Positions 6,001 to 12,000 of a stretch of 64,000 nt of DNA are shown here, one piece after another; the stretch's first letter is position 1; every line of letters starts with the position of its first letter. The stretch is from assembly GCF_053078305.1 (NCBI RefSeq), contig NZ_CP166879.1, one strand, 5' to 3'. Made by a program: the position numbers.

Positions 6001-9000
6001 GTGAAGTTATCGTGGTAGTCACGGGTTTGTTTTTCTTCAGGCACACCTACGTTGCTGATTTTTGATAAGTGCCACTTACCGATTGCTGCAGTGTAATAAC
6101 CATGATTCTGAAGTAATTCAGACAGGAATGTTTCTTCCAGAGGGATACCATCCTGTGCATCAGAATTTGAATATACACCGAAGCGAGCAGGAGCTCGCGC
6201 CGTCAGGATTGCGGCACGTGAAGGGCCAGAGACACCGTGTGCAACATAGCCGTTAGTGAATTTTACACCTTCGTCCATCAGGGCCGCTAATGTTGGAGTG
6301 GATTTTTTTGCAGCTTCAATTGCTTTATCAATACCTATTTTGTATGTATCAACAACATTTCGGTTATCCATCGTTTTAGGGTCAAATGAACTATCATCAA
6401 AAGGCAATTGTCCATACCCTAAATCATCCATTGTTAAAACAATGATATTTGGCTTACCTTTAGTGCTGTATTCCGTCGGCGTGAAGTCCGCAAAGGCAAC
6501 ATTGGTTTTTGTTGCTTTGAGCTTAACATCATCTGCTGCATTTGCAGTACTCATCATCAGACCAGATGCTAATATAAGTGATATTGATGAGTTAAGCAGT
6601 TTTTTATTTAACTGATGTTCCATATGGTATTCCTTCTGAGTTGCATCACGAACATTTATTAATAATAAAAGCCTCTGATATAAATAAAAACTATGTAAAT
6701 CGTTTAAATGGATACCTGTTAAAACTGATACATCATACCAACAGCAAGTATATTATCGGTTGCAACTCCAGCCTTTTTGGTAAATTCGCTTTCATCAATA
6801 AGGTTAATTTTGTAATCAATAAGAAGTGACATGTTTTTGTTCAGAAAGTAGTTTGCGCCAACATCAATATACTCAACAAGAGACTGATCGCCATAGTTTA
6901 CTATTCCACCTTTAACATCCATCCCTTTGGACTGAACGTAAGCCAGTGAAGGACGCAGGCCGAAATCAAACATATACTGAGCCACAACTTCAATATTCCG
7001 TGCTTTATCTGCGATGCCTGCGCTACCAAATGGAGTCATATTTCGGGTTTCAGAGTAGTCAGCTGCCAGATACAGGTCATTATCATTATACTTGACCCCA
7101 ACACCTGCAAACTCCGCATGTTTTCCCCCGGCAATCCAGCGAGGCGTAATAACTTCTTTTCCTTCTGAATCTTTCGATGTCATGAAACGTTTACGGCCTT
7201 CTTTTTCCTGCAGACTGGTTCTGTCGGCATTAGTGTAAGCGGCAACGATTCCAAAACCTTCATAGTCATAGCTTACGGAGAAACCATATCCATCACCATT
7301 AGCTTCAAGTAAATTATCACGGTCATTTTTACCCTGATATTGAGCAGAAAAAGTAAGTCCATCAACAAGCCCGAAGAAATCTGTATTGCGCCAGGTCAGA
7401 ACTCCGGTTGTTCTGCCGGTCATATAGTTATCAGAGTAAGTCCAGCTGTCACCACCAAAGTCCGGAAGTACGTCAGTCAGAGCCCCCACATCATAGGCAA
7501 CACCATAGTTTCGCCCATAATCAAGTGAACCGAGTATATTGTGGCGAATACCTGCAAATGCCAGACGATTTTTATCGTTGCGTACTTCACTTTCTGTCTT
7601 AAACCCCAGGAACTGGTATTCCCACTGACCAAAGCCAGTCAGGCTCTCATTAATTTGTGTTTCGCCTTTGAAACCAGACGTGCAAATGTTCTGTCGCCAT
7701 CCATAGAACCATCAGAGATGTAATGACGGGCTTTAACGCGACCATAAAAATCCAGTTTATTACCGTCTTTATTATAGATTTCTGCTGCCTGTGTTGCCTC
7801 ACACAGCATTAATGCAGAAACGACAGAGCACACAACCATACTTAATTTTCGCATAAAAAAATCCCCTGTGCACATTTTTAGTATGGTTTTAAAAATTAAA
7901 CTATGGCGAAAAAATTATCACTATGCAAAGATGTAACAAAATATTGCTCAGTGATCTATGTTGTTGTTTTTATTTGAGGTTGTATATTTTCTAGTGTGTT
8001 TGACTTTTCTTTCTCAAGTGTTATTTCTTGACCTTTATCACAGAACCATCTCCCTGGATATCCCCATCACATTGCATGAAAAGCAAGTTTTACCAATCTT
8101 GATTTTCAGTGTTAAATAAGATTAATAACTGTAATTCTGCAAAAAAAAGAACACCATATGTAGTATGACTACGTATTCCACTCTGTTCGTTCACGGACTG
8201 GCATCGAAGTCTGAGGTGTACTGGCAATAGCGGATACAGTCATTTGTTCTTTTTTTAAGCATTCATCCGATGATACTTTTCCTGAATGCTACCGGAGTGG
8301 TATTCCCCTGCCGTGAGGGAGGGCGCTGACGGTTATAAAAATCCTGATATATACCCATTCCCGTATGACAGCGATGGCGTCACATCTCTGTTCTACCATC
8401 TTCACAGAAATATTTCGTTCATTAGCATTCCGGTATTCGTATAACCACCTTCGGTGGAGAAAGAATAAACAATCCCTGGAATGCGATGAGCGCTTGACCA
8501 GAAAAGCATCATATTGCTTCATGGCGCATCAGCGACCACAGGATGCCGCAAAAGCCGAAAAACGGACCAGAGCGCCTGCAATCATTCCTCGCCTCAGTAT
8601 CTGTTGCCCATGGAGTGGCCGATAACAGATCATTGTCGGATGAGCCTTATCCCCTTCCTTCCCGGTGGTATCCGGATGTGCTGCCAGCCTTCTCAGTTAA
8701 CCGATGTTTTCCGGGCTTTTTGCCATACTGAGGACTGATAACGTATTCCTGGTCGTAAAACCCGTCAATATGCGCCGGGGCATCGACAAAACTGACACAG
8801 TACGTCCGGAAAGAACTTAACGCTGCATGGCACGACAATGCTGCCTTTGTCTTTACCAACAAGGCTCGTTCCCGCATAAAAGTTCTACGCCGGGATAAAC
8901 ATGGCGTATGGCTGCGTCAGGCCTTCACTACTTCACACCGGAAGTCTTCCACCCTGACACGAATATACCGTCCGGGCTCTTTCGCAGGTGCAAACAGTTT

Positions 9001-12000
9001 TTCACATTCGGCGAATGTCATTTCTGAATCCTGGTAACGCAACCACTGAACCGGCATATTACCGGGTTTGATTATTGTCGCAGTTATTTTATATCGTTTC
9101 CCCATATCGCCTCTCATCCTGACAACAAAATTACCGGCTGAGCCATCACTCCGGTAAAGCATGCGAAAAAAAGTGAGCGTCTCAGCAATGGCTCATGCGA
9201 TGATTCTGTACGGGCACCGATGGCACCTCAGAATACAACAAAGATATCAGAGTAACATGTCTCTCTCGTTATTTTTCAGAGTTCTTGACACCCTCCTTCT
9301 GCCACATTGTCAACGCCAGTGGAGACTTCTGCTGTCAGTTTTTTCATCCATACAGAGTGACATTAATTATCCTGAACAAAACGAAATATCCTGAATATAT
9401 TTATTTTCTCCTGGTGCCGGAGACATGATGATGTACAGGCTCAGGTGCGGTGTGAATGTAAAATGGTATGTTAATTATTCATTTCTGAATGCAAACTGAA
9501 TGCAAACTTATTCCGAATTGAATTCTCCTGACACCACATGATAAAAATGAGGATATAATAAAATACTTCTCTTCTGGATGTGCCATTACCTGCCGTTGCT
9601 GTAATACGGCGGGTATTTTTTACTGACATATCGGGAAGCCAGCAGACGTTCGTAGCTACATCCCCGAAAGTGGCACACTGCAAACTATAATACGAGTAAA
9701 ACATCGATCACCGTAGCTGATGTGTTCAACGATCGTGCACTAGCGTTCTGCGATTCTCAGGGACTGCCTGTTCTGAGAATCGGCGAGTCCGCGATCGGAT
9801 ACGATGCGATTTCGCAGTGAGTCAGGGATTGCATCTGAAAACCCTCCGGCTATGTCGGTAAATATTTATTTCTATGAACCGTACGATTCAGATAGCATTC
9901 GCCCGACCCCGTAAGAATAATCTCCGGACAAATAAGATTTTTCCTGAAAAAGCGTCTAGTCTTTTGATATCGTTGTTTTTATGCTAATCAGGGAGTATGT
10001 GTGATGATTGTCTGTTACGTTATTCTTGTTAACCGTCCGTTTGAAACAGAGATTGCCGGGAAAAAGATATTTTTTCAGAAAAATGACGTCCTGTTGACAG
10101 ATAACATCAGCCAGTCCTTTTTCCTGCGCCATCCCGGTAATGTTACTGAGCTCCGGATTGACGAATGCATTGTCAGAAAATATATGGAAAGTGCCGACAG
10201 GATCCAGCACTCTGATAGTGCTGTTTCTGTTCCGTTCATTAAAACAACCTTCTCTCACATCGCTCTGTTACATAATGTCATACAGAATCTCAGTCTGCAA
10301 AAGACATTGCCACAACAATTTTCTGAGCAGATGTTTTTTGCCTGCCTTTCCATTTTTTCCACACACAGAGGTTTCATGTTTCTGCTATTCAGATGCATAA
10401 ACTCTGTTGCGCTTAAAGTCAGGTATATTATCTGTTCCAGTCCATCACGGGTATGGAGAGTTAAAGATATCAGTAATTCTCTGTACATGAGTGAGAGTTT
10501 ACTGAAAAGAAAACTTCAGGAGGAAAAAGTTTCTTTCTCCCAAATCCTGCTGGATATACGCATGCATAACGCCCGACAACTTATTTCCAGTAAACTGTCA
10601 GTGAATCAAATCGCAATACGTTGCGGTTATGCCAGCACACCGTATTTTATCAGCGTTTTCAGAGAATATTTTGGCATAACACCTCATCAGATGATGATTA
10701 ATCAGTCCGGATTTATTGAGGGCAGAATCGCAATTAAGTAAAGTATGTCAGTCAGCGCATAATAAAAGTATTCTTATGCTTCATTATCAGTTTCTGTTTA
10801 TCACTCCGGAGCACTGTAGTAACTACGGACCCGGAAAACAGATGGTAATGAGTTGACTGACTGATGATATTGTGGCGACATTTTTACGGATGCGAGCAAA
10901 GAATGTATTGGTCCGTTTGATTATGCAGTGATTAACAAAACTCCGGGAAGATGAATGAGTATACCTCTCCTGCAATCCGTTTCCTGAGAAAACAGGTGGT
11001 AACACAAATTCTTAATATGTTACTGTTTCACCACACAACCAGGTTTACGGTTGTGTGGTGAACTATAGTAATCCCGGGTAACAATCCGGAGCTGTTCCTT
11101 TTATACTCTTCAGACTGTGTACTCATCCACGCCATCCGTTTTACAGTCTCAGTGTGTGAATAATAAATTACACTTTGAAGTGAACGCCAGTCAGGACCAT
11201 GTCGTATTTCCGGATGGATGAGCATATATCAGAAACGACAATTACTACAGATGACTGTTTTCAGTAATTCTGTCATAACTTGCCGGAATGTAATGTTTTT
11301 GTGACATGGTTCTTGTTTTTTATACACAGGCAGGTTTTGTCGGGATGGAATGGATAATGAACTCTTATCATTATAAGGCGGTAACCTCTTTTTTATGTGA
11401 TTAACTTTCATTATTACCAATTCTGTTTATCGATTCAGTTCTGGAAATACAGAAAAATTCAGTGCAGGTGTATAAATCATCACCATGCGAAATACATAAA
11501 ACATATTAATGTTTGTTTTCCACAGGAAAAATCTTAAGTATGGACAGGTATTCCTGATGCCATTTAAAATAGATTCAGGGTGAGTGTTCAGCACTCACCC
11601 TTTCCGGACGGATAATATATTTTAATACTATATAATTATATAACAGGAATTATATGAATAAAATATACGCGCTTAAATACAGCTGCCTTACTGGTGGGCT
11701 TATAGCTGTGTCAGAATTAAGTAAGAAAGTTTCGGGAAAAACCGGAAGAAGATTAATGACGGTTTCCCTGGTATTATCAATGATTCTTTCTGCTTTACCG
11801 GGTAAAGCATCAACGGTCAGCGCAGAAATACCATATCAGACTTTTCGTGACTTTGCTGAAAATAAAGGTGTGTTTACCCCCGGAGTGACAGGAATTGAAA
11901 TAAAAGATAATAATGGAAATGCAGTTGGTACGCTTGATGTGCCAATGATTGACTTCAGCAGTGTGTCTCGGCGGGGCTCACTGACCCTGTTGTCGCAGGG

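Follow-up and report, generated by a model that had tools for sequence, protein, structure and literature searches.

Positions 7876–9950 of the window (the whole stretch of DNA that was analysed, 64,000 nucleotides) separate a porin gene from an AraC-family regulatory gene, and a reading made from the sequence alone had described them as about 2 kb with no convincing genes, perhaps degraded remnants of mobile elements or an undetected non-coding feature. We found that this stretch is very probably a junction-zone scar in a mosaic pheV pathogenicity island, made of dead pieces of mobile elements that have no function as a unit, together with one intact small gene encoding a protein of the DUF1187 family. 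Successive insertions, truncations and recombinations would have left this debris, which would join two cargo modules, a sulfatase–porin module on the left and an AraC–EspI–subAB–tia–integrase module on the right. The suspicion of decayed mobile elements was correct and can already be read from public annotation; the finding as posed contains nothing new.

The window carries a pheV-type pathogenicity island of the type found in Escherichia coli strains that produce Shiga toxin (STEC), with genes for a sulfatase, a porin, the AraC-family regulator, EspI, subAB, tia and an integrase. The 2,075 bases of 7876–9950 were matched at 99.5–99.8% identity in the best-matching complete genomes, which were mostly those of Shiga-toxin-producing strains from human, cattle and pig hosts, and the arrangement was found (at a coverage of at least 80%) in 91 of 5,426 complete E. 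coli genomes. The surrounding 24 kb matched islands with a TonB-dependent receptor, a sulfatase, a porin, an AraC-family regulator and the serine-protease autotransporter EspI, and these islands further encode the subtilase toxin (subAB), an outer-membrane protein (tia), a phosphoethanolamine transferase, a tetratricopeptide-repeat (TPR) protein and a tyrosine integrase.

The spacing between the porin and AraC genes is ~2.1 kb without any long open reading frame (ORF). The longest ORF wholly within 7876–9950 has 86 amino acids, and first-order Markov resamplings of the same sequence gave a longest ORF of 102 ± 26 amino acids, with 72% of them reaching at least 86. The ORFs present are thus what chance provides, and NCBI/RefSeq annotation of 99.8%-identical DNA in other genomes places only a tnpB pseudogene and one coding sequence, for a DUF1187 protein of 62 amino acids, between the porin and AraC genes. 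The gap reported by the sequence-only reading is therefore real, with limits that shift slightly. As that reading had stated, the porin gene (6719–7875, minus strand) is a pseudogene in the window, having lost 1 nt near 7677 that is present in the intact 378-amino-acid allele of other strains; comparison with this intact allele placed its true start at 7854, not 7875, which moves the left limit of the gap from 7876 to 7855. At the other end, the AraC start codon is at 10004, and AGGGAG precedes it by 8 nt.

When the longer stop-to-stop segments of the gap (at least 38 amino acids) were scanned against Pfam, NCBIfam and PHROGs, the only matches were to DUF1187, TnpB_IS66 and an IS3 tail. A promoter and terminator scan of the region returned sites no more numerous than in shuffles, a repeat search returned chance-level short repeats plus one 11-bp duplication, and an Rfam covariance-model search of window positions 7400–11700 returned no family at E ≤ 1. 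Neither a duplicate of the region nor a second DUF1187 copy was found elsewhere in the window. The idea of degraded mobile-element remnants held for most of the stretch, in which homology identified an IS600-like piece, two pieces of the IS66 family and a piece of the IS481 family, and did not hold for the intact DUF1187 gene. The idea of an undetected non-coding feature received no support from Rfam, and the comparative support for it was modest and concerned one short conserved leader upstream of DUF1187 only.

The leftmost insertion-sequence (IS) piece is the right end of an IS600-like element of the IS3 family (8212–8382, minus strand), of which there remain a terminal inverted repeat, TGAGGTGTACTGGCAATAGCGGA..., and ~38 codons from the end of the transposase gene. 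Its nucleotide identity to annotated IS600-family transposase genes was 81–85%, and the alignment with an intact IS600 end opened exactly at the TGAGG of the terminal repeat TGAGGTGTACTGGCAATAGCGGA (8212) and ran to ~8382. The minus-strand frame 8266–8379 is the tail of an IS3-family transposase, matching positions 346–369 of 369 of NCBIfam transpos_IS3 (E = 0.014) and Pfam rve_2 at E = 0.14. The piece thus has a terminal inverted repeat that begins with TG and adjoins a transposase 3′ end, as in the IS3 family, and lacks the complete orfA–orfB with programmed frameshift and the second terminal repeat, the homology stopping at ~8382, where the IS66 part begins.

This next piece (8391–8917, plus strand) comes from the left of an IS66-family element, about a third of which remains, comprising a leader, a tnpA that has lost its start codon and has a ~61-bp internal deletion, and a truncated tnpB, with no tnpC. 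Positions 8397–8917 were 82–85% identical to the intact tnpA–tnpB of locus L002; tnpB is cut at about nucleotide 192 of 381 and ends at 8917, and RefSeq labels 8725–8914 a tnpB pseudogene. Pfam TnpB_IS66 matched over profile positions 18–60 of 101 (E = 4e-9, 36.7 bits against a cut-off of 26.6), and NCBIfam IS66_TnpB scored 38.9, under its cut-off of 50. What remains is homologous to the tnpA–tnpB of the family; a full set of intact tnpA, tnpB and tnpC, flanked by terminal inverted repeats on both sides, was not found, and the left terminus was not recognisable. Minus-strand frames in 8405–8696, considered as an IS3 integrase core, were ruled out, as the nucleotide homology there is to IS66 tnpA on the plus strand. 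In a folding-energy scan of 106 windows of 120 nt, the strongest was 8400–8519 (z = −4.4), a hairpin of the dead element's leader. This long hairpin (8416–8492, plus strand; −41.7 kcal/mol, z = −3.7) extends over the former tnpA start, and L002, an intact relative, preserves part of the pairing; in this IS group the hairpin could serve as a leader that occludes translation.

Farther right, a 75-bp fragment (9317–9391, strand unassigned) is found elsewhere next to a tnpC remnant of the IS66 family, a short way past its 3′ end: it matched plasmid L005 at 98.7%, 33 bp from the 3′ end of a tnpC pseudogene. The homology to another locus, L004, breaks at the same base, 9317, and these alignments suggest that the fragment is probably an IS66-family terminus. 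The last piece (9640–9781, plus strand) is an internal fragment, with neither start nor end, from the catalytic-core region of an IS481-family transposase gene. It was 72–75% identical in nucleotide sequence to many annotated IS481-family transposase genes, with the translated match ...KTSITVADVFNDRALAFCDSQGLPVLRI; the fragment alone had no Pfam or NCBIfam match, and only 140 bp match, with no transposase ORF containing a DDE catalytic core. Identities of 72–85% show that the IS pieces are old, or that they come from unnamed relatives.

The DUF1187 gene and the fragment that carries it

The only intact coding sequence in the region is the DUF1187 gene (8917–9105, minus strand), whose 62-amino-acid product is identical to RefSeq WP_000520190.1. 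Its frame is stop-free, and the protein can be aligned over its full length with Rac prophage YdaC (62 amino acids) and with an IncI2 plasmid protein (64 amino acids), retaining the conserved DUF1187 residues Y5, I7, K13, G15, P18, W21, C34, F55 and C57. Pfam PF06688 (DUF1187) matched with 61.8 bits against a gathering cut-off of 20.7 (E = 7.8e-17, profile positions 1–58 of 61), and phrog_5753 matched at E = 4.6e-17 (positions 1–58 of 62). NCBIfam PRK09750, which describes the YdaC-type subfamily, gave E = 1.8e-19 but only 69.7 bits against a cut-off of 92. The window protein is therefore a member of the DUF1187 family that falls outside the PRK09750 subfamily.

Because all close relatives begin three residues before RYKITAT, with a purine-rich motif before that ATG in every one, we placed the start at the ATG at 9105, where a GAGAGG ribosome-binding site ends 4 nt before the codon. 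The frame has another ATG upstream, at 9162, and the sequence-only reading had cited the ORF that begins there, 8917–9162, as an example of the poorly supported ORFs of the region, without a Shine-Dalgarno sequence. This ORF is in fact the region's one real gene, read from an upstream ATG; the lack of a Shine-Dalgarno sequence is true of the ATG at 9162 only, and not of the family start. The same reading had named a homology match to an intact gene as the observation that would speak against it, and the gene at 8917–9105 provides such a match. For annotation, the gap needs no new gene model beyond this 62-amino-acid DUF1187 protein, already called by RefSeq, with its start at 9105.

The gene belongs to a 400-bp fragment of a conjugative-element transfer region (8917–9317, minus strand), which comprises the gene and ~200 bp upstream and recurs as a unit. 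In such transfer regions DUF1187 sits between TraC and DUF1525/TraU, and positions 8917–9306 were 81–82% identical to the TraC...DUF1187...TraU regions of L034 and L035. The homology to transfer regions of integrative and conjugative elements (ICEs) ends exactly at the DUF1187 stop codon, and the IS66 homology stops at 8917, the last base of that codon. Among different neighbours, 8507–9317 recurs at 96.9% identity in L004, behind ibrAB, and plasmid L006 holds 8668–9145 at 99.8%. The L013-type copy has ATA in place of ATG at the family start codon (L013, ~402–404) and extra substitutions in the protein, a sequence pattern that suggests decay of DUF1187 in that lineage.

The family is small, with 58 cluster representatives among 1.84 billion proteins. 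A search for solved structures of DUF1187 returned none, and a literature search found no paper mentioning the family. An AlphaFold2 model built from 45 sequences predicted a beta-beta-alpha-beta fold with a mean pLDDT (predicted local distance difference test) of 74.6. We suggest, with low confidence, that DUF1187 proteins are small (~60 amino acids) mobile-element accessory proteins that probably act by binding partner proteins, and, as tentatively, that their genes usually lie just after, or overlap, another small gene. The window's gene would then be a hitch-hiker, perhaps still expressed and perhaps not. In some conjugative-element transfer regions, DUF1187 is followed by the gene of an AraC-family regulator (L036, 1014–1733; L037, 927–1646) that is 38% identical to that of the window (10004–10741; E = 3e-36); the proximity of DUF1187 and AraC genes in both the ICE and the window may be coincidence or an old linkage.

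tRNA-Phe repeats at the junction

The island's integrase ORF (25319–26503, minus strand) lies beside the exact last 50 nt of tRNA-Phe (26680–26729, minus strand), so that a tyrosine integrase adjoins a tRNA 3′ end at one border. ARAGORN called no tRNA anywhere in the 64-kb window, the sequence at 26680–26729 going uncalled because the 5′ half of the tRNA is missing. In CP55_Sichuan the same integrase adjoins the whole pheV tRNA and yqgA, which indicates that the genome of the window has other DNA inserted or recombined at this place.

A degenerate 18-nt copy of the tRNA-Phe 3′ end, TTCGATGCC-AGTCCG, lies in the same orientation within the gap (8194–8211, minus strand), directly beside the terminal repeat of the IS600-like piece. 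Positions 8191–8211 read TTCGATGCC-AGTCCGTGAAC on the minus strand and aligned in direct orientation with positions 53–74 of the annotated tRNA-Phe with one gap and three mismatches (17 of 21 bases), a match that alone is too short and degenerate for significance. A cleaner version of the repeat occurs in contigs that we found via the native context of an 89%-identical DUF1187 protein (L013–L016). In L013 and L014, the block 8194–9521 (95% identity) is joined directly to sequence equivalent to window 26702–25172, where the integrase lies with the DNA upstream of it; L015 and L016, which are short, stop at the same block boundary, 8194. At the L013 junction, TTCGATGCC-AGTCCGGGCACCA agrees with the tRNA-Phe 3′ end at 22 of 23 bases and passes directly into the DNA upstream of the integrase. 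In other genomes, then, the block has a tRNA-Phe repeat and an integrase as its immediate neighbours, which makes ~8194 a probable old boundary of a sub-island, and the sequence at 8194–8211 is probably a relic attachment-site repeat of this former border.

Under this model, the sub-island would span 18.5 kb, with its integrase still beside the exact tRNA-Phe 3′ part and with 8194–8211 as its worn attachment-site repeat at the distal end. If the sub-island were excised, its joint (26702|8194) would carry the hybrid site TGGTGCCCGGACTGGCATCGAAG. The L013-type genomes would then have a second, related island integrated at the worn repeat, and the region may be a record of tandem island accretion at pheV. 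Duplication of subAB islands is already on record (PMC7371111).

Contigs L013–L016 are collinear with the window from 8194 to ...CCGAATTG at ~9521 and diverge beyond. The DNA that closes this block (9392–9521, strand unassigned) contains the 11-bp tandem duplication at 9485–9508, which has 2.2 copies of the unit CTGAATGCAAA and is lineage-specific, with a single copy in L013–L016. Positions 9493–9628 (strand unassigned) have weak similarity to unannotated intergenic DNA of a lambdoid prophage (L008), which they match at 82% identity over ~70 nt in the interval that separates ylcI/ynfO from the lysis genes, and contain a terminator-like hairpin at 9596–9612.

A conserved leader and other readings of the gap

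Upstream of the DUF1187 gene is a leader of ~110 nt (9106–9215, minus strand) with an inverted repeat, CGCATGAGCCATTGCT / AGTGATGGCTCAGCCG, and a 4-codon mini-ORF (ATG AGC CAT TGC TGA). The conserved leader was seen in the window and in L017, L023, L026, L029, L034 and L038. This leader provides the main grounds for a different reading of the gap, one we consider unlikely, in which a functional non-coding element is present: either the leader itself, with a hairpin covering the mini-ORF start and controlling DUF1187, or a small RNA in 9392–9640, where the terminator-like hairpin at 9596–9612 would fit. In favor of an RNA element, the nucleotide blocks of the leader are kept across loci whose DUF1187 proteins share only 50–63% identity, and the blocks CGCATGAGCCATTGCT and AGTGATGGCTCAGCCG are mutually complementary. 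Across 8 loci, 90.8% of the cells of the resulting 15-pair helix were paired and 4 pairs were changed on both sides, compared with 20–51% pairing for slid controls, and the covariation was 0.195 versus 0.135 in shuffles, with 2 of 500 shuffles reaching 0.195; several of the 8 sequences are closely related, however, and the structure was derived from the same set, so these counts are inflated. The G-U pairs of the helix fit the sense strand only, and the minimum-energy fold of the window sequence contains the helix.

Against an RNA element, the folding energy of the leader in the window is ordinary (z = −0.42), a covariance search of four related loci found no Rfam match, as in the window itself, the promoter scan found no consensus promoter, and the terminator hairpin that precedes the leader in conjugative elements (the ICE loci) is degraded in the window. 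The first block of the leader holds an invariant ATG, which opens a 36-codon upstream ORF (MSHCLIADFFRAYITG...) in L029 and an in-frame extension in L017, and which gives only MSHC and a stop in the clade of the window, apparently intact conjugative elements included. The differences between the leaders of L017 and L029 are mostly synonymous in the upstream peptide, and this pattern of substitutions points to peptide coding, not RNA constraint. A scan of species-representative genomes with the leader pattern returned no occurrence, and a scan of the genome collection with the peptide pattern returned 4 distant loci only, none with the leader.

Put most specifically, the leader would be an undescribed cis-regulatory RNA in which a mini-ORF or upstream peptide and a 15-bp long-range helix, placed after a terminator in transfer operons, gate DUF1187 translation. 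We regard this proposal as doubtful; if it were true, the copy in the window would be a still-functional cassette, not debris. The DUF1187 family and its conserved leader form a small unexplored part of mobile-element biology, and the leader is the only thread here with some novelty.

We think it considerably less probable that the gap is a long regulatory region shared by the divergent porin and AraC genes, for instance an AT-rich H-NS platform, whose length has been maintained for that purpose. The two ends of the gap do travel with their own genes. The porin upstream DNA (7855–8193, minus strand), with the promoter and 5′ region, is AT-rich at 30–37% G+C, contains no ORF with a Pfam, NCBIfam or PHROGs match and travels with the sulfatase–porin module: window 7601–8315 was 98.5% identical to plasmid CP195947 p2, beside the same sulfatase and porin genes, and the match ends at 8315, after which a different transposon follows on the plasmid. 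The AraC upstream DNA (9885–10003, plus strand; Shine-Dalgarno sequence AGGGAG at 9990–9995) travels with the AraC gene, with 96% identity over 9910–9990 in L009, immediately downstream of a fragment of IS66 tnpC, and 85% identity over 9885–10100 in L010, beside a related regulator. However, the 1.6 kb in the centre can be recognised as a set of foreign fragments, at 44–51% G+C, and the porin in the window is a pseudogene. In other genomes the two modules occur apart, the sulfatase–porin module with its upstream DNA to 8315 on the plasmid and the AraC–EspI module behind btuB–iha, each with only 90–440 bp of upstream DNA.

Least credible is the presence of further unannotated small genes, namely an 81-amino-acid form of DUF1187 starting at 9162 and the ORFs 9161–9394 (plus strand) and 9471–9704 (minus strand): although gene callers report 81-amino-acid forms in public data (P0001, P0002) and ...FFRMLYRSDGSAGN..., which lies upstream in the same frame, is similar to the peptide found upstream in L017 and L029, the family alignment starts at the conserved ATG three residues before RYKITAT and a TGA at codon 5 ends the frame of the upstream peptide throughout the clade of the window, and the two other ORFs have no Pfam, NCBIfam or PHROGs match and are no longer than expected by chance.

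Several points weigh against the junction scar. In three unrelated contexts both the DUF1187 gene and its leader have stayed intact, an argument that this part is more than debris. About 450 bp (9392–9639 and 9782–9884) had no convincing homologue, and because of this a functional element could still hide there. The tRNA-like repeat of the window is insignificant on its own, and its interpretation as a relic depends on the L013-type junction, which no complete genome in the collection contained in one piece.

Comparison with known elements and islands

The DUF1187 proteins of the Rac prophage (YdaC) and of IncI2 plasmids share with the window protein their Pfam family, their length, 43–44% identity and the residues W21, C34, F55 and C57, and all three are encoded on mobile elements. 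Unlike the window gene, Rac ydaC starts 8 nt inside ralR, and the IncI2 gene starts 8 nt inside a gene for a CaiF/GrlA-type regulator. A search of the DNA upstream of DUF1187 in the window found no gene resembling ralR or caiF; the window gene belongs to the ICE-transfer-region subfamily (the RYKITATIIKPG subfamily), in which a distinct conserved leader precedes the gene and no upstream gene overlaps it. Elsewhere in the window, the zinc-finger region of RalR gave a weak tblastn match (E = 0.005) to CPLCNGPTVKRKGKSGFFWGCSRYPDCRG at 43784–43945 (plus strand), which is probably the gene of an unrelated zinc-finger protein.

Among insertion sequences, the window pieces resemble IS600 (IS3 family) in the terminal inverted repeat and transposase tail, the IS66 family in the order and sequence of tnpA–tnpB, and IS481-type elements in the catalytic-core transposase fragment. 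Intact elements of these kinds normally exceed 1 kb; the pieces in the window measure 171 bp, 527 bp and 140 bp, respectively, and none is complete or mobile.

At the level of the island, the published gene order of SE-PAI, the pathogenicity island that encodes the subtilase, is tRNA-Phe, integrase, a shiA-like TPR gene, a sulfatase-family ORF, tia and subAB (PMC7371111), and the island in the window matches this order. The SE-PAI and the LPA (locus of proteolysis activity) are reported to co-occur (PMC6455142), and in the window espI, an LPA gene, and the AraC gene adjoin the SE-PAI part. We observed espI and subAB–tia–shiA–integrase in one continuous pheV-side island (~11654–26503), and such a continuous espI and SE-PAI island could account for the reported co-occurrence. 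The 2-kb junction, the repeat at 8194–8211 and the DUF1187 fragment are not described in these papers (PMC7371111, PMC6455142). The tRNA-Phe-like repeat together with the L013-type junction is a marker for the stacking of SE-PAI and LPA-type cargo at pheV, which could aid the typing of STEC islands. The tRNA beside the integrase in the window is reduced to its 3′ 50 nt, unlike in published pheV islands. In the mosaic pheV islands of LEE-negative STEC (those without a locus of enterocyte effacement), IS debris between modules is typical, and the window has the same feature.

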